Positions 8,002 through 64,000 of a DNA stretch of 64,000 nucleotides are shown here, piece by piece. This stretch comes from a virus (taxonomy: Duplodnaviria; Heunggongvirae; Uroviricota; Caudoviricetes). Location of the stretch: IMG/VR virus record IMGVR_UViG_3300031088_000793. One strand, 5' to 3'. The notes beneath the pieces were generated by a model. The model worked only from the letters and a program-made list of their open reading frames with translations, was not told where the DNA came from and searched no databases. The position numbers and the translations under genes are program-made. How positions within the stretch are numbered: the first letter of the stretch is position 1; each line of letters opens with the position of its first letter.

Positions 8002-9198
8002 TCAGGCTCGCAGGGGTGCGACAGCTCGAAGGGGCACAGCATTGGTCCGCAGCTCTGCCATCAGTGGACAGATGAAGGGGTCTACCTTGGTGGAGAGCCC
8101 AACGCCGTTGAGGAAGCGCACTACCTCGCCGAAGCCACTGAAGAGCCCCATCTCCTTGTAGGCGATGCCCTTCTCCCGGCAGAACTCCTGAACGATGGGC
8201 CGAACCCGGGCCAGGTTGGGTCGAGCCATCGAGGGGAAGAGGTGATGCTCGATCTGGTAGTTGAGCCCACCGAGGAGCGTGTCCTTGACCCGGCTGGGAG
8301 TGATGTTCCGGGAGGTGAGGACCTGACGCTCAAGGAAGCCGATCCGAGAGCTTCTCTCCACCAGGGGCATGCCGATGTGGTTCACCGCGAAGGCGGCGCC
8401 GAGGAAGAAGCCGAAGGAGAGCATGTAGGTCATCCAGGCGATGGGAGAGACCCAGAGCGGAAGGAAGAGGAAGTAGACAGCCATGGGAGTGAGGAGCCGG
8501 ACGACGAGCATGGCCCCCTCGATCCAGCGGAGGTTGGCGCCCCGGCCAGTCTTCCTACCGAGGCTCTTGAAGGAGTCCAGGAGGAGGTCGAAGCTCGTGA
8601 GGAAGATCAGCACGGGGAAGAGCCAGCCCTGATTCCTCGTCAGCATGCGCTCAGCTGATGGCTTCTCGAACTTCTGCTCGGTGGAGAAGGCGATGATCCG
8701 CAGGGAGATGTCCGGGTCGCTGTCCACCATGTTGGGCTTGCCGTGGTGGCGGTTGTGCTTCTGGAGCCAGAAGCCGTAGGACAGCCCCGCGAAGAGATTG
8801 GCCATCACCATACCCACCCAGGTGTTGGCTCGATGATCCTCGAAGACCTGATTGTGGGCGAGCTCATGGGCGATGAAGGCGTACTGAGCGGTGAGCAACC
8901 CCTGGAAGACGATGAGGGGCAGCACGAGGAGAGTTATGGGCCCCGAGAGGAAGATTCCCATGAGGATGATCCCGGCCCAGGTCATCAGTGAGAGCAGAGT
9001 GACCACAGCGAAGGACCAGCCATAGAAGGCAGGGTGCTTCTTCAGAAGTCCCTCGTCCTTGACCTTGGTGAGGAGCTCACTGTAGACGGAGAGGTTTTTA
9101 GCGGCCACGGTGTAGCTCCAGATCGTCGGTGTGAGCTCTACTATCAGCGCTGCGGGAAAGGATATGCCGCAGAGGGCATGAAGGAGGGGCTCAAGCAC
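8002..9198 (-). CDS. membrane fatty-acid (acyl-lipid/acyl-CoA type) desaturase
   Basis: Three His boxes in the expected order (HELAHN, HNRHHG, QIEHHLFP) with TM helices in the N-terminal half. Confidence 0.85.
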   Translation of the reverse strand: MLEPLLHALCGISFPAALIVELTPTIWSYTVAAKNLSVYSELLTKVKDEGLLKKHPAFYGWSFAVVTLLSLMTWAGIILMGIFLSGPITLLVLPLIVFQGLLTAQYAFIAHELAHNQVFEDHRANTWVGMVMANLFAGLSYGFWLQKHNRHHGKPNMVDSDPDISLRIIAFSTEQKFEKPSAERMLTRNQGWLFPVLIFLTSFDLLLDSFKSLGRKTGRGANLRWIEGAMLVVRLLTPMAVYFLFLPLWVSPIAWMTYMLSFGFFLGAAFAVNHIGMPLVERSSRIGFLERQVLTSRNITPSRVKDTLLGGLNYQIEHHLFPSMARPNLARVRPIVQEFCREKGIAYKEMGLFSGFGEVVRFLNGVGLSTKVDPFICPLMAELRTNAVPLRAVAPLRA

Positions 9199-18563: not shown

Positions 18564-19697
18564 CTAGAGCCGGAAGAGCAGCTCCAGCAGAGGTCGCCAG
18601 CTGTCTGCCCTCTGCTGATCTTCGCTCCGGGACGCTGAGCCGAAGCGGGCGAGCTCATCTCCGGAGACTGTGTAGAGCTGGAGCTCCCGGAAGTCCTCTG
18701 AGTAGTAAGCCGAGTCCGCCGTGAGGATCCCAGCGGGGAGTGAGTCGCCGCAGGACTGATCCTCTGCGACCTCAAAGCCGCCGATGAGCACGCCTCCGAG
18801 GGTTCGCTCGTAGGGCGCTAGAGCCTGGCTACAGCCCTCTTCCAGGGTCACTAGTCCCGACTCCCGGTCGAAGCGCAGATTCAGAGCGCTGTCTTCGGCG
18901 GAGATCCAGCTGTAGCCATCCGGAGCGGGAGGATCGAGATGGAGATCAGCTGGGGAGAGCTGCTGATGGAGCTGCGAGACCCCCAGGCCGAAGAGCGTCG
19001 AGAGGAGAAGTGCTGCCGCTAGGGCTCTGCGCTTCCTCCGAGGGGCGACCACGGCGAGGGAGCTCCGGAGGATGCCGATGCCCCGAGGGATCATCAGCGC
19101 GGCAAGGCCGAGGGCTGCGATGGCGTCGGCTCGGAGGAAGCCGAATGCCAGCACTGCGATGCCTCCGGCTATAACCACCAGGGAGCCGAGGGCGTCGCTG
19201 ATGACCTCGAGGAAGGCTGCTCGGAAGTTGAGGTTGGCCTTCCTGCTGGAGTAGAGGATACCTACGCAGACGAGGTTGGCCACGAGTCCCACTGAGGCGA
19301 AGACAAGGAGGTACTCACCGGCGATGGGATGGGGCACGATGAGGGACCGGAGCCCTCGGAGCGCGGCGTAGATACCGACACCCACGAGGAGCGTGGACTG
19401 GATCAGCGCAGAGAGCGCCTCGAGCCGTTCCTGAGCTGCTGCGCTCGGTCTCCGGGGAACCAGAGAGACTCCGAAGGCTACGGCGATGCCGAGGAGATCC
19501 ACGAGCATGTGGACAGATTCAGCCAGGAGTGCGATGGAGCCGGTGAGGAGCGCTCCGACGAACTGAGCTCCACAGGCAGCCAGGGCGATGAGGAGCACTG
19601 CTCCCAGTCGGAAACGGAGGAGCCTTCGATCCTCAGCTCCCACAGGAGAGGGGAGAGCGTGGCTGTGGCCCATCTGCTCTCCCCTCTCTCGCTTCAC
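18564..19697 (-). CDS. cation diffusion facilitator (CDF) family transporter with an atypical C-terminal domain
   Basis: His-rich N-terminus, TM2 LAESVHMLVDLLGI and a six-TM core typical of CzcD-like CDF proteins. The C-terminal ~150 aa have two Cys residues and no obvious CDF cytoplasmic-domain signature. Confidence 0.7.
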   Translation of the reverse strand: MKRERGEQMGHSHALPSPVGAEDRRLLRFRLGAVLLIALAACGAQFVGALLTGSIALLAESVHMLVDLLGIAVAFGVSLVPRRPSAAAQERLEALSALIQSTLLVGVGIYAALRGLRSLIVPHPIAGEYLLVFASVGLVANLVCVGILYSSRKANLNFRAAFLEVISDALGSLVVIAGGIAVLAFGFLRADAIAALGLAALMIPRGIGILRSSLAVVAPRRKRRALAAALLLSTLFGLGVSQLHQQLSPADLHLDPPAPDGYSWISAEDSALNLRFDRESGLVTLEEGCSQALAPYERTLGGVLIGGFEVAEDQSCGDSLPAGILTADSAYYSEDFRELQLYTVSGDELARFGSASRSEDQQRADSWRPLLELLFRL

Positions 19698-19713: not shown

Positions 19714-21060
19714 TCAGTCCTCGATGTAGGAGTGGCCCTCGTAGTAGGGGACCCAGTCGTTCTTCGCGTAGTTCTTCAGCTCAGCTCCGGTGAGCCGAAG
19801 CATGATGGCGTGGCGGGCCAGGGAGTCGATCACCGCAGGAGTGATGATCTTTCCGGTGGCGCCGACCTTCTCCTCGATGATCTGGAGGAGCTCCTCGAGG
19901 AGCGCATCCGTCTCGCCGGAGAGCCGCTTCCGGATCATGGCCAGGTGAGCTCCAGGCTGCACATCCACGATGAGAGCCCGCTGCTCGAGCCGGCCGGGCC
20001 GAACCACAGCCTCATCGAACTGCGAGGAGTCGTTGGTGGTCGCGAGGATCATCTGACCACCCTCCTGGTCGAGGCCGTCGAGCTCGTTGAGGAAGGAGCT
20101 GAAGTCGTTCTCCCCTCGCTCGCCGAAGAAGGACTCCACATCCTCCAGCACGATGAGCACAGGCTCGTAGCGATCAGCGAAGGCGAAGATGTCCTCGATG
20201 GAGGAATCCGGAGTGGCGTAGACCACCGTGGTCTCCCCGGAGAGGTCCCGGGCGATTCGCCGGGCCAGGGTCGTCTTGCCGGAGCCGGGAGGTCCCTCGA
20301 GGAGAAGGCCTGCCCGGGCGGGAAGGCCGAGTTCCTTCAGTCGATCCCGGATCTCAGAGTCCGCGATGGAGCTCATCCAGCGCACGGCTGCCTCCACCTC
20401 GGGTGAGTAGCCCGAGATCTCTCCGAGCTCGAGGTCGATGATCTTCACCGAGCTGCCATCGAGCCGAACGATCTTGCCATCGTAGGGGTCGGGGAGGATC
20501 ACATAGTCCTCGACGGTGGTGATGAGCTCGTTGATGCCGCCTTCGACCGCCTTGCCGTAGAGAGTGAGATCGACTCGGCCCTCGTAGTTCAGAGCGAAGC
20601 GAACCATGATCTGCTCGGCAGCGTTGAGGAAGTAGCGATGCTCGGAGCTCATGAGCGCGGGGACATACTCCCCGGTCTCCACGGACTTTGCTGAGCCCTT
20701 CCAGGGATCCTCCGGCCAGACCTCCCAGTCGGCCGACTTGACGAAGCGCTCATGGGCCCGAGTATTCCAGAGCTGCTGGTAGTGGGCGCTCGGCGAGTGG
20801 TAGGTCTCCGGCCACTCATCGATGGCCTCCTGGATGTGCGAGGGAGTCTCGGCGGTCGAAGGGGTCGGCGTGAGCCCGTGGAGCACTGCCTTGAAGAAGC
20901 CTCGGCTCGCGTCGGCAGTGTAGGGCTCATCCCAGCCGTTGGAGAGGATGATCTGGCCGAGCTGGAGTCCCAGGGCCTGCTCCAGGGTCTCCCGGGGGAG
21001 CACCGCGAGGGCCTCGAGCTGAGGGTCGATGGGCTCCGAGGCCCCGGTCTTGTCGGTCAC
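19714..21060 (-). CDS. AAA+ ATPase (448 aa) with an N-terminal ~230 aa domain of unknown function
   Basis: Walker A GPPGSGKTT, Walker B VLIVLEDVE, sensor-1 TTN, and an arginine finger region (VVRPGRLEQ). Confidence 0.85.
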   Translation of the reverse strand: MTDKTGASEPIDPQLEALAVLPRETLEQALGLQLGQIILSNGWDEPYTADASRGFFKAVLHGLTPTPSTAETPSHIQEAIDEWPETYHSPSAHYQQLWNTRAHERFVKSADWEVWPEDPWKGSAKSVETGEYVPALMSSEHRYFLNAAEQIMVRFALNYEGRVDLTLYGKAVEGGINELITTVEDYVILPDPYDGKIVRLDGSSVKIIDLELGEISGYSPEVEAAVRWMSSIADSEIRDRLKELGLPARAGLLLEGPPGSGKTTLARRIARDLSGETTVVYATPDSSIEDIFAFADRYEPVLIVLEDVESFFGERGENDFSSFLNELDGLDQEGGQMILATTNDSSQFDEAVVRPGRLEQRALIVDVQPGAHLAMIRKRLSGETDALLEELLQIIEEKVGATGKIITPAVIDSLARHAIMLRLTGAELKNYAKNDWVPYYEGHSYIED

Positions 21061-31450: not shown

Positions 31451-32491
31451 TTACTGGGTGGGAGCGGGCGCCGAGCTACCGGGGACCACGACTGCCGATC
31501 CACCACCGGGCCAGCAGCTGAAACCTGCGGGCAGCGTGTAGTTGCTCTGCGAGGCGTCCTTGAGCAGGTCGAAGCAGCGCGAGACGAGCACATTGGGGTC
31601 GTTGCTCACCGAGTCGGAGAGCTCCTGGTTGGCTCGAGCCTGAGCCTTGGCGGTCTCTTCCTGCTGCGTGGCGATCCGGGTCTCACCGATGGCGGCCACA
31701 TAGTCGTCGAGCTTGCGCTGCGTGTTGTCCGAGAGCTTAAGGTAGGAGAAGGTGATGCCCTCGATCTGAGCCTGGTCCTTCTCCGAGAGGCGCTCCTTCA
31801 TGTCGTCCTCGATGACCTTGGAGATCTCGCCGTAGTCGGGAGCGAAGGACAGGTCCACCGAGAGCTCGTCGCTGCCGACGGACTTGAGCTGAGCGATGGG
31901 GTTGTAGTCCTTCAGGGCTTCCTGGACCGACTGCTTGAGCTGGGTGCTCACGATGGCCGAGCGGAAGGACATGGTGGGGTCGTCGGAGCGGTGCTGCTCG
32001 TAGACGCCGGCGGCCTTCTCAGGGTTGATCTGCCAGCGGTTCACGATGTCAGCACAGCCCTGGCTGCCGTCACCGATGCGGACGGGGATGCAGGCTTCGC
32101 CCTCGTACTGGTCGGTCTGGATAGTGCCGTCGATCTCGACGACCTTGGTCCAGGGTGCCTTCAGGTGGGGGCCGGGGTTCAGGGTCTTCTCCGAGACGGC
32201 GCCGAAGTTGACGGCGACGCCGACATTCTTCGCCGAGACGGTGGTGAAGGCCATGGAGATGAGGATGACCAGTGCGACGGTCGAGACCAGGACGCCACCC
32301 CAGCGGATGCCGTTGCTGGCGAGGCTCGCGGCCTTCAGTCGGCTGATCTGCTTCTCGGTGCCGAGGCCGTCAGCCTGAGCCTTGGCCAGGGTCTGGTCGG
32401 CGATCTTCCGGCGCTTGGAGCCGGTGCGGATGGCGGTGAGCCCTCCGAGGAGAACGATGAGGAGGAACACTGTTCCGAATACTGCGCCCAT
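31451..32491 (-). CDS. SPFH/band-7 (prohibitin/HflKC-like) domain membrane protein
   Basis: N-terminal TM helix, then NVGVAVNFGAVS...PGPHLKAPWTKVVEIDGTIQTD, typical of an SPFH domain, followed by a coiled-coil rich C-terminus. Confidence 0.65.
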   Translation of the reverse strand: MGAVFGTVFLLIVLLGGLTAIRTGSKRRKIADQTLAKAQADGLGTEKQISRLKAASLASNGIRWGGVLVSTVALVILISMAFTTVSAKNVGVAVNFGAVSEKTLNPGPHLKAPWTKVVEIDGTIQTDQYEGEACIPVRIGDGSQGCADIVNRWQINPEKAAGVYEQHRSDDPTMSFRSAIVSTQLKQSVQEALKDYNPIAQLKSVGSDELSVDLSFAPDYGEISKVIEDDMKERLSEKDQAQIEGITFSYLKLSDNTQRKLDDYVAAIGETRIATQQEETAKAQARANQELSDSVSNDPNVLVSRCFDLLKDASQSNYTLPAGFSCWPGGGSAVVVPGSSAPAPTQ

Positions 32492-59291: not shown

Positions 59292-59801
59292 CTAGTCCTT
59301 CTCGGTGGTGGTAGAGTTGATCAGTGTCTGCATGCCCTTGAGCACGCCGTGGACATCACCCTCTGCGCCGAAGGCCAGAGTGATGTGGAGATCCTTCGCG
59401 GGGAGTCCCAGGGACTTCCTCCAGTCAGCCACGGCCTGCGAGCGGCACACGGCGAACCAGGTCGAGCGGCCCTCGCTCGAAGCGGTGCCGACGCCGTAGA
59501 CAGCGAAGCGGATCGGGCTCTTGGGAAGCTCCAGCTTGCTGCCAGCCTGCTTGAGCTCCCGGGTGACCTTGCGAAACTCACGAGGCTCGATGATGGTCAT
59601 GTGGTAGCGGTCTGCGCCGTCTCGGAGATCCCGGTGACCCTTGAGCTCCTCGAAGTCATCTCCGAGGATGGCCTGGAGCTCGATCTCCAGGGGCTGGAGC
59701 GCAGCGGCATCCACGGAGAGAGCAGCGTAGGAGCCCTTGAGCACCTTGGCTGCACCTGAGACCGTCAGGGGCTGCTCAGCGGTGGGGATTCGGATGTCCA
59801 T
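59292..59801 (-). CDS. 2H phosphoesterase superfamily protein (LigT/cyclic phosphodiesterase-like; start probably MDIRIP)
   Basis: Two H-x-T-x motifs (HMTI and HITL) about 75 residues apart. Promoter 59808-59836 places the leaderless start at the second ATG. Confidence 0.5.
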   Translation of the reverse strand: MDIRIPTAEQPLTVSGAAKVLKGSYAALSVDAAALQPLEIELQAILGDDFEELKGHRDLRDGADRYHMTIIEPREFRKVTRELKQAGSKLELPKSPIRFAVYGVGTASSEGRSTWFAVCRSQAVADWRKSLGLPAKDLHITLAFGAEGDVHGVLKGMQTLINSTTTEKD

Positions 59802-59807
59802 GGATCC

Positions 59808-59836
59808 ACCATACGCCATGGGGAGCTACTGCGCAA
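59808..59836 (-). promoter_or_regulatory. conserved leaderless promoter (-35 TTGCGC, N17, -10 TATGGT, N6, ATG)
   Basis: Family motif. Confidence 0.45.
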
Positions 59837-60154: not shown

Positions 60155-60406
60155 TCAGTAAACGAGCCCGTAGCCGACGGGCTTGTCACCCGCGACCAGT
60201 GAACCAAGGCCCCCGAAGAGTAGTGGAGCGGTGGACTTGAGTCCCCCAGCAGCACCGATGCTGAGTACCCCACAGACAAGAATGACCAGGGAGACGACGA
60301 GTAGGGTGAGCATCGTTGCGAAGCTTCCGGCGATCTCGAGAGGGCTGTAGTGGAAATCAGGCGCTCTGTTGGCGAAGTCCTCGAAGATCTGGTTTCGCAT
60401 GTCCAT
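60155..60406 (-). CDS. small membrane protein, paralog family G (83 aa)
   Basis: C-terminal GDKPVGYGLVY matches GNQHVGYGLFY of 60406..60966. Confidence 0.45.
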   Translation of the reverse strand: MDMRNQIFEDFANRAPDFHYSPLEIAGSFATMLTLLVVSLVILVCGVLSIGAAGGLKSTAPLLFGGLGSLVAGDKPVGYGLVY

Positions 60407-60966
60407 CAGTAGAACAGTCCGTAGCCCACATGCTGGTTGCCAGTGAGCACCGAACCTGCATCGCCGAAGATTGACCGGGCAGGCTTGACGAGCTTCCAGC
60501 TCACGGCGGGGAGGCCAGTGAGAACCAGGAGCATAGCTAGCCTCAGGTTGTCCTCAGCATCTTCGGTTTTGAGAGCGAGCTCATTGCTATCGTAGCCGGT
60601 AATGATGTAGAAAGCGTTTGCGGGGAGCTCGCCGCCTGCCTCGCCCTCGAGCTCATCAGCGGACAGGATGTCGATGTCACTGCGGGCTCCGACGAGATCA
60701 CTTTCGCCGTAGTAGGCAGTGCCGAGCTCTCGCTGGATTGCGATGAGCTGCTTCTCACTGGGGCTGAACTGCTCGTAGTCTGCCCAGAGAGCCGGAAGCC
60801 CGAAGCCGAGCTTGGCCACATTGGCCTCATAGTTGGCCTTGAGGAGTTCCTCAGCGATCTCAGAGCCGTCGGTGGAATAGACCTCGATGTGCTTGACATC
60901 GGTCTTGCCATGGCCATCGTCGGACCAGTCGCCGAAGGTGACAGAGAAGGGAAGTGACTGAGCCAT
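60406..60966 (-). CDS. hypothetical protein, paralog family G (186 aa)
   Basis: Shared C-terminal tail with 60155..60406. ATGA junction. Confidence 0.5.
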   Translation of the reverse strand: MAQSLPFSVTFGDWSDDGHGKTDVKHIEVYSTDGSEIAEELLKANYEANVAKLGFGLPALWADYEQFSPSEKQLIAIQRELGTAYYGESDLVGARSDIDILSADELEGEAGGELPANAFYIITGYDSNELALKTEDAEDNLRLAMLLVLTGLPAVSWKLVKPARSIFGDAGSVLTGNQHVGYGLFY

Positions 60967-61053: not shown

Positions 61054-63216
61054 TCAGAGGAGCTCGAGGAGTGCGGCCCGGTCCACGGGCTCCTGAATCG
61101 TTGCCACTCCGTGAGCAGAAGCCCAGAGCTCGGCGAGGCGACCCATGGAGAACTTCGGACGGGCGAGCTCATCGTAGACGATGGCGCCCACGGTGTCGTC
61201 CTCGGTGGAGGACAGCCCCGAGGCGGTCGAGCCGTTGGAGGAGTCGATCCAGACGAGGCGGCCCGTCTCCAGGTTCACAGCGAAGGGCACCGACTGAGTG
61301 GACTTCGTGGTGGGCTTGAAGGCCGTGGCCACCGAGCGCGCATCGAAGGTCTGACCGGCCTTGCCCTCGCTCCGGAGCATGGCTCCAGCGATGAAGTCCA
61401 CATCGGCCATGGGGAAGCCGGACCAGGACTGCACGGTCATGGCCACCCACTTGGCTCCACGGAAGCGAGCGCGGAGCTTCACCAGCTTCAGGTCGATGAA
61501 CTCAGCTGCCGAGTCGCCGGGGTTGACATACTTGTCTCCGGAGTAGGTGCTCCAGTCTCGAGCCATGTTCCAGGAGTTCCAGGTGGTCACAGCGACCTGC
61601 TCGAAGTCCCCGTCGAGGACCACAGCGCCGATGTCCATGTAGCCACCGGTGATCTGATTGTTGTTCCAGTGGCCGAAGATCCGCAGGGTGTCACCCTCGC
61701 CGGCCAGGGCAAGCTCCTCGCCTCGGTCCAGCACTCGATCAGCGGTGGCCGCGTCCCGGCGAACCAGGGGCACGGGGAGCTCGGAGCTGATGCCCACGGG
61801 GCCGCTGGGAGCACCCTTGGAGCTCAGCGAGCCTCGGATGGCATCGTCGAGCGCGCCGAGGATGGCGGCCTGGTAGTGGGCATCGATCTTGGCGACCGCA
61901 GCCCGGTCCTGCATGGTGTTAGTGAGCCCAGCCACTCGCGTAACTCGAGCGTGCTCGTCGTTGGCGGAGAGGACACCGTTGTAGGCGGAGATCAGCGTGG
62001 TGAGCGCAGCGCCCCGGCCCACGATGCCCACGGCATCGGCGAGCTTCGCAGCGTCCGAGTCGTCGGTGGTGAGCCTGAGGATGGCCACGAGGCGGCGCAG
62101 GAGGTTGCCGGGCTGGTACTCAGCGAGGAGCTGAGCAACAAGGCCGGTCTCGCCCTTCTCCAGACCCTCCTCCACCAGGGAGTTCAGGGTGCGGTACTCG
62201 ATGTTGCCGTGGATGATGTCAGCAGCCCTGCGGGCAGCGTCGCTGAGCTTCAGGTCGTAGGGGTGCACCGTCCGGAGCACGCCACGCCAGAGGTTCACTC
62301 GAGCGAGGAGTCGGTCAGCGTGGAAGCCACTCGTGAGCTCGCCGAGGCGAGCGACCAGAGCACCTCGCAGGAAGCGAGGGATGTTGGAGTAGCGCACGGC
62401 GCGAGCGTGGCGATCCGCCAGGGTGCCCACGGCCAGAGCGTAGTTCTCTGCCCACCTGGCTCCCGAAGGAGCGGTGTAGAGCGAGAGCACGACTCGAAGG
62501 AGGTGATCCACCGAACGGACGCTGGAGAGCGCGATGCTGAAGAGCGACTCGGAGGTGAAGTTCGAGGTCGGAGCGATCCAGTCGCGGACGGCCTCGACGA
62601 AGACCTGGATGTTCTCACCGTTGGAGGCAGCGCGGAGCACAGCATCCGTGGAGGAGGAGAGCTCGACGGCCCGGTCGCGGAGCGCCTCGGTGCTGTAGAT
62701 CACAGCGACGGCGCCAGCGAGGAGCTCCCGGTCGGCCTCGGAGAGGGCAACGGGGTCGCCGACGAGCTCAGCGATGAGAGCCTGGGATGCGTCGGTTGCC
62801 TTGAGCACACGGAGCGCCCGGGCGCTGCGCAGCATGTCCTCGAGGGGAAGACCCTCGCGGACCACGGTGGGGTAGTCGGGGAGGAAGACGCCGCCGGTCC
62901 AGTAGTGGAGGAGCTGCTCGACGATGAGCGTGGTGGTGGAGAGCGCCTCGACCTGCTCGGGGAAGCCAGCGTAGATGGGGTCCATGGCCCGGTCTGCGCC
63001 GATCACAACGCGAGCCTCGGCGATGCTGTCCTTGAGCGAGGCTGCGGTGAAGCCTGCGAGCTCCTTGGGATCTGCGACGAAGCCGAGGTTGGCGAGCTCC
63101 AGCACGGCAGCGTAGCGCACGGCGTCGCTGGCGGGCGTCGATGCCGGAGCATCGGGAGCGATGAGGATGCCGCGGCGAAGGGCCGAGCGGCGGAAGGAGG
63201 CTGTGAGCTGAGCCAT
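61054..63216 (-). CDS. large hypothetical protein (720 aa)
   Basis: The longest ORF in the window. Consistent codon usage. AAAGGAGAAC Shine-Dalgarno. The antisense 730-aa ORF is a GC artifact. Confidence 0.65.
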   Translation of the reverse strand: MAQLTASFRRSALRRGILIAPDAPASTPASDAVRYAAVLELANLGFVADPKELAGFTAASLKDSIAEARVVIGADRAMDPIYAGFPEQVEALSTTTLIVEQLLHYWTGGVFLPDYPTVVREGLPLEDMLRSARALRVLKATDASQALIAELVGDPVALSEADRELLAGAVAVIYSTEALRDRAVELSSSTDAVLRAASNGENIQVFVEAVRDWIAPTSNFTSESLFSIALSSVRSVDHLLRVVLSLYTAPSGARWAENYALAVGTLADRHARAVRYSNIPRFLRGALVARLGELTSGFHADRLLARVNLWRGVLRTVHPYDLKLSDAARRAADIIHGNIEYRTLNSLVEEGLEKGETGLVAQLLAEYQPGNLLRRLVAILRLTTDDSDAAKLADAVGIVGRGAALTTLISAYNGVLSANDEHARVTRVAGLTNTMQDRAAVAKIDAHYQAAILGALDDAIRGSLSSKGAPSGPVGISSELPVPLVRRDAATADRVLDRGEELALAGEGDTLRIFGHWNNNQITGGYMDIGAVVLDGDFEQVAVTTWNSWNMARDWSTYSGDKYVNPGDSAAEFIDLKLVKLRARFRGAKWVAMTVQSWSGFPMADVDFIAGAMLRSEGKAGQTFDARSVATAFKPTTKSTQSVPFAVNLETGRLVWIDSSNGSTASGLSSTEDDTVGAIVYDELARPKFSMGRLAELWASAHGVATIQEPVDRAALLELL

Positions 63217-63224
63217 GTGGTGTT

Positions 63225-63300
63225 CTCCTTTGGAAGCTGAGGTCAGGAAAGACGAGACGGCGAATTTTAAGAGAAAGTAGCCACCCCAAGGGGCCTGACA
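63225..63300. repeat. ~75-bp direct repeat, copy 1 (promoter/5'UTR of 61054..63216); copy 2 at 63423-63500
   Basis: GAAGCTGAGGTCAGGAAAGACGAGACGGCGAATTTTAAGAGAAAGTAGCCACCCCAAGGGGCCTGACA versus GAAGCTGAGGTGAGGAAAAGCGAGACGGCAGAATTTTTCCAGTAAAAGTAGCCACCCCAAGGGGCCTCACA. Confidence 0.6.
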
Positions 63301-63369
63301 ATTTCCACCCTAACATGGCCCCGGAGCTCCTGTCAACTTCCCTAGGCCATCAGTTTCCGAAGGACTGCC

Positions 63370-63460
63370 GAGCCAAAGAAAAATCCCCCGGAGCCAGCGA
63401 TGCTGTCCGGGGGATTTACTGTGTTGAAGCTGAGGTGAGGAAAAGCGAGACGGCAGAATT
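63370..63460 (-). ncRNA. candidate small RNA: duplicated promoter/leader fused to a rho-independent terminator
   Basis: Repeat copy 2 supplies the promoter-like region and a leader homologous to the 5'UTR of 61054..63216. It is followed by hairpin 63377-63418 (AAATCCCCCGGA/TCCGGGGGATTT) and TTTTTCTTTGG on the minus strand. Confidence 0.3.
63377..63418 (-). terminator. rho-independent terminator
   Basis: 12-bp stem, 13-nt loop, with a T-rich tail (TTTTTCTTTGG) on the minus strand. Confidence 0.55.
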
Positions 63461-63846
63461 TTTCCAGTAAAAGTAGCCACCCCAAGGGGCCTCACATTTG
63501 GAACTCTATCACACTACTGAGCGAGTGTGCAACCTCGGAGCGCTCGGTAACCTACCGGGCCTCCGGATGAGCCTCTAGCTACCCAGAGTGGACCTACGAG
63601 GATTCGAGGGATCCACCGAAGCGGGGAAGGACGGAGAGCCCTTCGGAGCCGGTACCGATGCTCCGCCGCGGACCTTTGCCCGCACCGTGAGGAACACTGC
63701 TCCTGCGACGGCTACGAGTAGAAGGATGATGGGTAGTGCGATTTCCAAGAGGAACTCCTTGTGTGTTGTGAATGGATCACCCCTATCACAGCCCGATGCT
63801 GCTGAGGTGGGTTGCTGAGGCGATCCGAGGAGTTGCTCTCAGCGAG

Positions 63847-63944
63847 GCTTAGAGACCGCGCTTCCTTCTGTAGATGAGAAGTGCGACGCCGCCGACTACG
63901 ATGGCTGCCATTGCGATGACGATGATGAGGCTGCTGGTGTCCAT
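63847..63944 (-). CDS. possible 31-aa transmembrane peptide
   Basis: MDTSSLIIVIAMAAIVVGGVALLIYRRKRGL: one hydrophobic helix plus a basic tail. A similar TTG-initiated peptide with an AAGGAG Shine-Dalgarno lies at ~63590-63765 (-). Confidence 0.3.
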
Positions 63945-64000
63945 GGGATTCTCTTTCTGTTTAGGGGAACTGCTCCGGTCACATTATCAACAGAGGTGCC

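Follow-up and report, generated by a model that had tools for sequence, protein, structure and literature searches.

A conserved structured RNA duplicated 5' of an alpha-solenoid/TerD-like protein gene of large phages: a candidate Y-RNA-like partner and mRNA leader

Results

A direct repeat lies 5' of the gene for a 720-aa protein

The window analysed here is a stretch of 64,000 nucleotides from a virus of the Caudoviricetes (IMG/VR record IMGVR_UViG_3300031088_000793), and the locus of interest is the gene for a 720-aa protein on its minus strand together with a direct repeat that lies 5' of this gene. The repeat is made up of the paired blocks 63265-63315/63461-63511 and 63233-63268/63426-63461, with a 3-nt indel between them, and its two copies, which we term A (distal to the gene) and B (proximal), are spaced 196 bp apart. 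The original prediction for this locus had described a promoter and leader segment duplicated at about 85% identity, and this was confirmed by alignment, 63 of 74 columns (85.1%) being identical between the segment 63500-63423 and copy B. However, the repeated unit extends further, through the promoter, and across the whole of it (copy A 63536-63426, copy B 63340-63233) identity is 76% over 112 columns. The 23-nt and 29-nt cores of the repeat each occur exactly twice in the window, and in none of 100 shuffles.

Each copy directly follows a putative promoter of the sigma-70/SigA type, judged by -35 and -10 hexamers at a spacing of 16-18 nt. The promoters read TTGCAC-18-TAGAGT (A) and TTGACA-18-TAGGGT (B), both with a TGn extension (Table 1); they score below the threshold of a generic scan, their positions are conserved across loci, and a TTGACA-like box is found at an equal distance 5' of most copies in other loci. 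The intrinsic terminator that had been proposed to follow copy A is present. Its 12-nt arms (63417-63406/63392-63381) are 100% complementary and are followed on the minus strand by the U-rich tail TTTTTCTTT, which ends at 63375, so that it has the G+C-rich stem-loop and U-tract of such terminators; RNAfold closes its 13-nt loop further. A consensus terminator scan missed it because the loop limit of the scan is 8 nt. Likewise, the Shine-Dalgarno sequence expected in the leader of the 720-aa protein gene is there, as AAGGAG.

A 61-aa open reading frame (ORF) at 63495-63310 had been considered probably spurious, and we have dropped it as a real gene. It starts with a GTG within helix P1 (see below) and is not conserved even in the closest relatives, being frame-shifted in the near-identical locus L004, where the encoded protein is 97% identical, and cut to only 10 aa in L027.

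The repeat corresponds to a conserved and covarying RNA structure

The outer arms of the two copies differ in a complementary manner, GTGAGG/CCTCAC in copy A versus GTCAGG/CCTGAC in copy B, and on the basis of this compensatory pair a comparative test of RNA structure was made. We fetched 32 metagenome loci, one contig of a metagenome-assembled genome (MAG) and phage WXIN for comparison, aligned 49 copies of the element using MAFFT, and later repeated the test on 59 copies; slid pairing partners and 500 shuffles served as controls. It can be seen that 96.4% of the paired cells in the 49 copies form pairs, against 40-58% with slid partners, and that double-sided changes occur in 10 of the 14 pairs with 126 compensatory cells, which was reached by none of the 500 shuffles. 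The outcome with 59 copies was the same (96% of cells pair, against 40-61% in the slid controls). When RNAfold was run on each isolated window copy, as had been suggested at the outset, the minimum-energy structure was exactly the covariation structure.

From base to tip, the module in the 49-copy alignment comprises a 6-bp helix P1, the 5' internal-loop strand C-UCCU-U, a helix P2 of 8 bp (9 with a U.G pair), the segment UAC-UUU, a variable A/U-rich apical loop that often contains UGG, the 3' strand of P2, the 3' loop strand GCYUUU and the 3' strand of P1. The internal loop is symmetric (5x5) and pyrimidine-rich, and P2 has conserved tandem G.U/U.G pairs. Because these G.U pairs are conserved the module is strand-specific, and together with its invariant orientation they place it at the level of RNA, on the sense strand. 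A palindrome or operator acting at the level of DNA was dropped as a candidate for the same reasons, since the conserved G.U pairs and the strict strand bias point to RNA. We conclude that the repeat is two copies of a conserved, folded RNA of about 60 nt and not a promoter remnant; copy A is predicted to form a small RNA gene of its own, and copy B to supply the 720-aa protein gene with its 5' leader.

The family-consensus strands of the internal loop, CUCCUU and CCUUUC, match substrings of the 3' tail of actinobacterial 16S rRNA (ACCUCCUUUCU); the loops of the window copies deviate slightly from this consensus (CCCCUU and GCUUUU/GUCUUU). The match is probably coincidental, as the loops are not pyrimidine-rich in the more distant clades of phages Weasels2 and RcXuper described below. 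Two candidate roles in this direction were rejected. The loops as mimics of the 16S rRNA tail or sequesterers of the Shine-Dalgarno sequence did not stand, since they are not conserved in the same two clades and the leader Shine-Dalgarno sequence is unpaired in predicted folds, and GGYUAC as an antisense to 16S helix 45 did not stand because this segment covaries with its partner inside P2.

The module is linked to one gene family at a regular geometry

The module is found 5' of a homologue of the 720-aa protein gene, and on the same strand, in about 40 loci; nearly every fetched locus has it there, over a GC range of 33-62%. A covariance model, R1, gave 52 matches in the seed loci and 16 in 8 held-out loci that were reached through other homologues, and all of them lie 5' of the gene on the gene strand. 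In the 64-kb window it matches the two copies and nothing else, and neither a canonical Ro locus nor the remainder of Weasels2 gave a match. Its matches to Weasels2, RcXuper and a canonical Ro locus were marginal or absent, the model being too narrow for distant clades, and the units of Weasels2 and RcXuper were recognised by eye and by folding. In a reverse test, an RNA pattern for subfamily 2 was run against IMG/VR and hit one contig, on which 4 tandem copies lie directly 5' of a 701-aa ORF; the corresponding subfamily-1 pattern gave 0 matches in IMG/VR, a protein-pattern scan of the same database found no relative, and megablast of the region against phages gave no match. A single short MAG contig was recovered from the GTDB genomes, which indicates that the gene is essentially one of phages and metagenomes. 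Two more clades, L060 (AT-rich, E 1e-50) and L061 (E 1e-87), were sampled from an exhaustive search, and both have units of the same architecture directly 5' of the gene.

The position of the module relative to transcription and translation signals is also regular. In most non-tandem copies an extended -10 element, TGnTAnnnT, ends about 7 nt before P1, which places the hairpin at the 5' end of the predicted transcript. In all 17 leader copies 21-31 nt separate the end of the module from the start codon, the distance from the end of copy B to the ATG being 23 nt. Among the 33 copies that are neither tandem nor leaders, 25 are followed within 75 nt by a terminator-like hairpin and U-tract, compared with 5.2% of random windows, and two or three more have terminators that the script missed. 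Absence of the duplication, or of its link to a terminator, from relatives had been named beforehand as grounds for abandoning the idea of a small RNA; both are present.

Three arrangements can be distinguished. In arrangement (a), seen in the window and at least ten other loci, a promoter, RNA and terminator are followed by a second promoter and RNA, the Shine-Dalgarno sequence and the gene. Arrangement (b), in nine or ten loci, has a single copy followed by terminator, Shine-Dalgarno sequence and gene, with no second promoter, and arrangement (c) has 3-5 tandem copies that lack promoters and terminators (WXIN, L018, L032 and L046). In addition, stand-alone copies occur 0.6-2.3 kb from the gene (L043:1639, L041:2948, L021:1354 and L023:1207), and in the first two of these genes on the opposite strand lie between the copy and the main gene. 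Such distant stand-alone copies are predicted to be independent small RNA genes.

The two-copy arrangement is kept where protein identity has fallen to about 53%. Copy B of the window is 93% identical to copy B of L005 and 80% identical to its own copy A, and in the clade L006-L012 (protein about 64% identical) the B copies are 80% identical to window copy B and the A copies about 70%. The B copies are closer to one another across genomes than A is to B within a genome, which excludes a neutral recent duplication; to judge by these identities, copies A and B are ancient paralogues.

A palindrome, ATCAACCCAGGAGGGTTGAT, occurs in 2-3 copies between the copy-A terminator and promoter B in L006 (about 1180-1250), in L007 (about 2310-2380) and at the equivalent places in L009 and L012. 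Such an array, which the window lacks, has the look of a set of operators through which a DNA-binding protein would regulate promoter B.

Units in cultured phages carry permuted tRNA-like inserts

Distant homologues of the 720-aa protein in cultured phages are accompanied by related units. Weasels2 has four of them in the unannotated 390 nt that follow gp266, the homologue. Each consists of a P1 of 4-6 bp, a 5x5 internal loop and a P2 of 8 bp, with UACUUC immediately after the 5' strand of P2 and GCUCA after its 3' strand. Unit 3 has, in place of the apical loop, about 85 nt with a T-arm and a D-arm in permuted order, and it matches the Rfam YrlA model with 26 bits (E 0.0014, model positions 23-86). 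RcXuper and RpAliso each have four units of the same basal architecture 5' of their homologues, with YrlA matches of 40.7, 34.7 and 42.3 bits (E 1e-6 to 4e-4). The permuted tRNA-like insert is present in 1-2 units per phage in Weasels2, RcXuper and RpAliso, and the simple units of RcXuper and RpAliso (in RpAliso, for instance, ...CAAGGGCAUACUUCUA...CGCCCUGCGCUUUCCUCGUU) are closely similar to the window RNA.

YrlA RNAs that lie beside genuine phage Ro60 genes served as a control, and these reach only 37-52 bits. In a tblastn search with human Ro60, no canonical Ro60 was found in the window or in the 125 kb of Weasels2 that were searched; RcXuper and RpAliso were checked for it in part. In Gordonia phage Boopy (MK894436) the YrlA model has a full-length match of 52 bits at L050:4684-4823, which overlaps the annotated tRNA-Leu SEA_BOOPY_158; this RNA is probably a Y RNA annotated as a tRNA.

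Just 5' of the homologue we also found genes for transfer-messenger RNA (tmRNA), at L045:517-933 (RcXuper), L055:703-991 (RpAliso) and L059:808-1108 (MT835874). In the two alphaproteobacterial phages the tmRNAs are permuted. They are unannotated in the RcXuper and RpAliso records, and the MT835874 record is without any annotation.

The 720-aa protein combines an alpha-solenoid with a TerD-like domain

In an AlphaFold2 model of the 720-aa protein (mean predicted local distance difference test score 87.5) about the first 470 residues form an alpha-solenoid, and a TerD-like beta-sandwich lies at the C-terminus. The model was placed among helical-repeat RNA-binding proteins, with which it superposes poorly. 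Relatives include proteins of WXIN (47% identity) and Weasels2 (28%) and more than 200 metagenomic homologues, and at 50% identity the family amounts to 2,210 representatives (E <= 1e-3), almost all of them 680-750 aa long. Pfam TerD does not score on the family. Sequence and profile searches of the PDB gave nothing significant, and no Ro60, and Foldseek against the PDB was also not significant. Against viral models, Foldseek found full-length relatives in LpeD and Campylobacter phages and, in addition, a phage TROVE protein (probability 0.96, E 0.037). The family has an invariant motif, R120-x-G-x-P-x-x-D127-x-L-R130-x-x-R133, at residues 120-133 (about 62858-62817, minus strand).

Gene neighbourhood and content of the window

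In the relatives the gene is found near tRNA arrays, tmRNA, a CCA-type tRNA nucleotidyltransferase, RtcB and 2H/LigT enzymes, and canonical phage Ro60 genes occupy the same kind of neighbourhood. The 2H phosphoesterase of the window has homologues in L007, L008, L009, L012, L016, L019 and L021, where they are encoded 1-2 kb downstream of the gene.

The 186-aa gene follows the 720-aa protein gene in L004, L005, L007, L008, L009, L012, L016 and L019, and is duplicated in L012. Its product and an 83-aa protein (60155-60406, minus strand) both end in ...VGYGL(F/V)Y. In L043, a 765-kb contig, an ORF similar to TnpB/Cas12f (OrfB_IS605; L043:7278-8564) lies 1.2 kb downstream of the gene. It is missing from L044, an otherwise syntenic sister contig of 505 kb, which suggests that it was recently inserted.

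Almost all genes of the window lie on one strand. Those for a fatty-acid desaturase, a cation-efflux protein, an AAA/STAND-like ATPase and an SPFH/Band-7 protein are listed with the other features in Table 1; no tRNA genes were found in the window and no structural genes were identified in it. Such a content would be in keeping with a huge phage or another large element of this kind.

Table 1. Features of the window (minus strand throughout; promoters and modules are lettered A and B as in the text).
Feature	Position	Strand	Remarks
-35 box, promoter A	63527..63532	-	TTGCAC (TGCACA if shifted by 1 nt); read from the sequence
Extended -10 box, promoter A	63503..63511	-	TGATAGAGT; read from the sequence
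Predicted stand-alone small RNA, about 120 nt	63375..63497	-	Ends inferred from promoter spacing and terminator
RNA module, copy A	63433..63496	-	Covariance model R1, 69.2 bits, E 1.3e-14
Copy A helices	P1 63495-63490 with 63440-63435; P2 63483-63476 with 63454-63447	-	
Copy A loops	5' loop 63489-63484; UAC 63475-63473; 3' loop 63446-63441	-	
Intrinsic terminator of copy A	63375..63417	-	12-bp perfect stem and U-tract
-35 box, promoter B	63331..63336	-	TTGACA; kept in L004, L005, L006, L007, L009, L012 and L027
Extended -10 box, promoter B	63307..63315	-	TGTTAGGGT
RNA module, copy B (predicted leader of 720-aa protein gene)	63240..63300	-	Covariance model R1, 65.9 bits, E 8.8e-14; RNAfold z = -2.55
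Copy B helices	P1 63299-63294 with 63247-63242; P2 63287-63280 with 63261-63254	-	
Copy B internal-loop strands	63293-63288 and 63253-63248	-	
Shine-Dalgarno sequence of 720-aa protein gene	63225..63230	-	AAGGAG
720-aa protein gene (candidate RNA-binding partner)	61054..63216	-	N-terminal alpha-solenoid and C-terminal TerD-like beta-sandwich
186-aa protein gene (conserved downstream neighbour)	60406..60966	-	phrog_20092
2H (LigT-like) phosphoesterase gene	59292..59819	-	Pfam 2H-SAK 1.7e-17; conserved downstream neighbour, RNA-end-healing context
SPFH/Band-7 protein gene	31451..32491	-	
AAA/STAND-like ATPase gene	19714..21060	-	
Cation-efflux protein gene	18564..19697	-	
Fatty-acid desaturase gene	8002..9198	-	

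Discussion

A proposed Y-RNA-like partner of a Ro-analogous protein

In the reading that we propose, a Ro-analogous protein has the module as its Y-RNA-like partner RNA, and one copy of the module has been reused as an mRNA leader; to this reading we assign a probability of roughly 0.55. Each module would begin at, or 1-2 nt from, the start of transcription by its own sigma-70-type promoter. The transcript of copy A would stop at the intrinsic terminator to give an independent small RNA, and copy B would stand at the 5' end of the mRNA that encodes the 720-aa alpha-solenoid/TerD-like protein. It is likely, from the promoter and terminator that copy A has of its own, that this RNA is made, so that the small non-coding minus-strand RNA with a 5' part resembling the mRNA leader in the original prediction stands as a sound prediction, although its length is now put at about 120 nt and not about 90 nt.

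The protein would bind the module specifically, and small RNA and protein would together be a ribonucleoprotein analogous to Ro60 with its Y RNAs. We put the odds that the adjacent protein has its binding site in the module at somewhat better than even. At the leader copy, 23 nt ahead of the start codon, the protein would attach to its own mRNA, with translational feedback or loading in cis as the outcome; that the leader serves to let the protein repress or load onto its own mRNA is a suggestion we make tentatively. Our confidence is lower still that the particle acts, as Ro60 with Y RNA does, in RNA surveillance or repair during infection, a role proposed by analogy and from the gene context. 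In arrangement (b) one promoter would give mostly small RNA and little read-through mRNA, and the tandem arrays of arrangement (c) would likewise make sense if more RNA than protein is required. The decoy of the original prediction is one direction that a mimicry between small RNA and leader could take; the evidence favours the RNA as a protein partner and the leader as the copy that feeds back on expression. The generic promoter and untranslated-region view of that prediction was right that the repeat is real, but it overlooked a conserved class of structured RNA tied to a protein family and the connection to Y RNAs through the relatives.

Bacterial and phage Y RNAs (YrlA, RF02553; YrlB; Yrn1 of D. 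radiodurans) function with Ro60/Rsr proteins that have TROVE and vWA domains (Chen et al., 2014; PMC4201824). The module resembles them in that it is a small RNA closed by a basal stem between its 5' and 3' ends, with conserved internal loops; here this stem comprises P1, the internal loop and P2, for which there is covariation and which would have a protein-binding role. Likewise, it shares its strand with the gene for a large helical-repeat protein a few hundred bases to a few kb away, and several copies of it are often present. As in YrlA, one copy per genome in the relatives contains a T-arm/D-arm module in permuted order to which the YrlA model responds, and the loci share with Ro60/Y RNA loci a context of tRNA, tmRNA and RNA-repair genes.

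There are also clear differences. Unlike Ro60, the 720-aa protein is not a recognisable TROVE protein, and at its C-terminus, where a vWA domain with a metal ion-dependent adhesion site would be expected, it has the TerD-like beta-sandwich. Unlike YrlA, the window RNAs are minimal at about 60 nt and lack a tRNA-like domain; unlike Y RNAs in general, their basal stem has CUCCUU/UACUU/GCYUUU in place of the Ro-binding helix and GNCGAA motif, and one copy doubles as an mRNA leader, a use not described for Y RNAs in the literature found. YrlA RNAs are expected to have a TROVE/Ro60 gene within about 4 kb on the same strand, whereas the neighbour in the window is the alpha-solenoid/TerD-like protein gene. 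The window RNA is not a member of YrlA, being below the Rfam threshold and having neither a tRNA-like domain in its window copies nor a TROVE neighbour.

A number of observations count against the analogy with Ro60 and Y RNAs. For the protein, Pfam has no family, and nothing was found in 68 members at E <= 10. An hhalign comparison with a 6-member Ro60 alignment gave a probability of 0.4%, that with human Ro60 was also not significant, and sequence-level homology to TROVE is not detectable. The sole hhalign alignment, itself not significant, pairs the R120-R133 motif with the invariant TROVE motif R-x-G-W-x-x-x-D-x-L-R-x-x-H, so that both families have the pattern R-x-G-x-x-x-x-D-x-L-R-x-x-(R/H), which we regard as a hint of remote TROVE homology. 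For the RNA, Rfam at its gathering threshold gave no relevant match in the whole window, and at E <= 10 no relevant family, YrlA included, on 62800-64000; the apical loops of the window copies are only 18-22 nt, with no tRNA-like domain, and the YrlA motif GNCGAA is absent from them. YrlA scores in the relatives (26-42 bits) are below the Rfam gathering threshold of 69 bits, although the scores of YrlA RNAs beside genuine Ro60 genes place them within the normal range of phage YrlA, and XacN1, SCTP-2 and LpeD gave no YrlA match in a model search, the three not being inspected by eye. An N-terminal fragment of a canonical Ro60/TROVE protein (E 1e-12), cut by the contig end, is encoded at L029:6-275 on the minus strand, about 2 kb upstream of the RNA and homologue and on the opposite strand to them. 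At least one phage therefore carries both types of protein, and in some phages the RNA could serve a true Ro60. Finally, co-location alone cannot separate a partner RNA from a cis-regulator of the operon.

Alternative explanations

The last point leads to the alternative that fares best, which is that the module is a cis-regulatory leader, a riboswitch or attenuator that senses a small molecule or another host or phage factor and controls the gene through the terminator or ribosome-binding site, the stand-alone copies being by-products or trans-acting sponges. In arrangement (b), where the terminator precedes the Shine-Dalgarno sequence and there is no second promoter, expression would have to occur by read-through, the leader copies keep a fixed distance to the ATG, and highly conserved unpaired nucleotides are typical of ligand pockets. 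Nevertheless we regard this explanation as unlikely. A riboswitch should show mutually exclusive pairings, yet in RNAfold the module and the downstream terminator fold independently, the Shine-Dalgarno sequence is unpaired, and the spacer of 10-25 nt between module and terminator or Shine-Dalgarno sequence has no complementarity; P1 neither overlaps with nor pairs alternatively with either element. Strongly terminated stand-alone copies up to 2.3 kb away, some of them followed by genes on the opposite strand, and the 3-5 tandem copies in WXIN-type phages also argue against it, and tRNA-like inserts on the same basal stem in the relatives fit the scaffold of a ribonucleoprotein and not an aptamer.

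Hairpins at the 5' end stabilise bacterial mRNAs, and the module could accordingly be a generic expression cassette, a strong promoter plus a 5'-terminal hairpin against 5'-end-dependent decay, that was duplicated because it is useful. This would explain why the module starts at the predicted transcription start with a promoter for each copy. We consider it improbable, since a stem alone would suffice for this purpose and yet CUCCUU, UACUU and GCYUUU are conserved across the whole GC range, the module is confined to this gene family, with two copies in the 64-kb window and, in the loci, none away from the gene, and many copies are terminated after about 120 nt, leaving nothing to stabilise.

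A promoter-proximal RNA that acts in cis on RNA polymerase as a processive antiterminator is a further candidate. The putL/putR sites of phage HK022 are likewise two structured RNA copies in a phage genome, each near a promoter and before a terminator, and the put arrangement resembles the layout of promoter, copy and terminator at the present locus, where each of the two copies directly follows a promoter and precedes a terminator. The module is a single extended hairpin tied to one protein family, in contrast to the two stems of put, and it occurs as stand-alone terminated copies, in tandem arrays and with tRNA-like inserts. The copies at L043:1639 and L041:2948, which are terminated and then followed by opposite-strand genes, would drive antisense read-through, and neither the promoterless arrays nor the tRNA-like inserts fit, so that we give this explanation very little weight. 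A functionless remnant of a recent promoter or untranslated-region duplication, the fallback of the original prediction, for which the identity of 76-85% at a distance of 196 bp might speak, is refuted by the ancient paralogy of the copies, their retention together in at least ten loci, the compensatory substitutions in their helices and the conserved terminators.

Relation to autogenous control and significance

With respect to the leader copy, the partner-RNA reading finds its closest precedents in autogenous operators that work by mimicry, such as E. coli thrS, which mimics tRNA-Thr, and the leaders of ribosomal-protein genes that mimic rRNA sites. As in these, the leader copies the proposed target of the protein and does so just 5' of the Shine-Dalgarno sequence, within reach of the 30S footprint. 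It differs from them in that binding is a proposal here, and in that no housekeeping RNA would be mimicked: the part of the 'authentic' ligand would fall to a dedicated small RNA that is encoded next door and has a promoter and terminator to itself. The protein in turn differs from TerD-family proteins such as SCO6318 (2qz7) and K. pneumoniae TerD (2kxt) in that its TerD-like domain is fused to a 470-residue alpha-solenoid and has no Ter operon context.

We did not find this RNA and protein described in Rfam 15 or in the searchable literature, the search of which was not exhaustive, and the conserved RNA family and its associated protein are apparently undescribed. In broader terms, it is possible, though we would not yet favour it, that a second lineage of Ro-like ribonucleoproteins, one without TROVE, exists in large phages that infect Actinobacteria, Proteobacteria and other hosts. 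Such particles would consist of an alpha-solenoid/TerD protein, with more than 2,000 sequence clusters, and multi-copy Y-like RNAs, some of them tRNA-like and one serving as an autoregulatory leader, and they might act in RNA surveillance or repair or against host defences that target RNA.

The cultured phages WXIN, Weasels2, RcXuper and RpAliso make the proposal directly testable. Should it be true, the module would be a new RNA family supported by covariation, and in deposited phage genomes RNA genes could be assigned to the unannotated intergenic gaps beside these genes. The cognate RNA would provide the first functional handle on an unannotated family of large and huge phages with about 2,200 representatives at 50% identity. 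It would also represent an unusually clean natural case of a partner RNA reused as the mRNA leader of its own protein, and a second protein solution to the Ro/Y-RNA design, in which a helical-repeat protein is combined with a basal-stem RNA that is able to carry a tRNA mimic.

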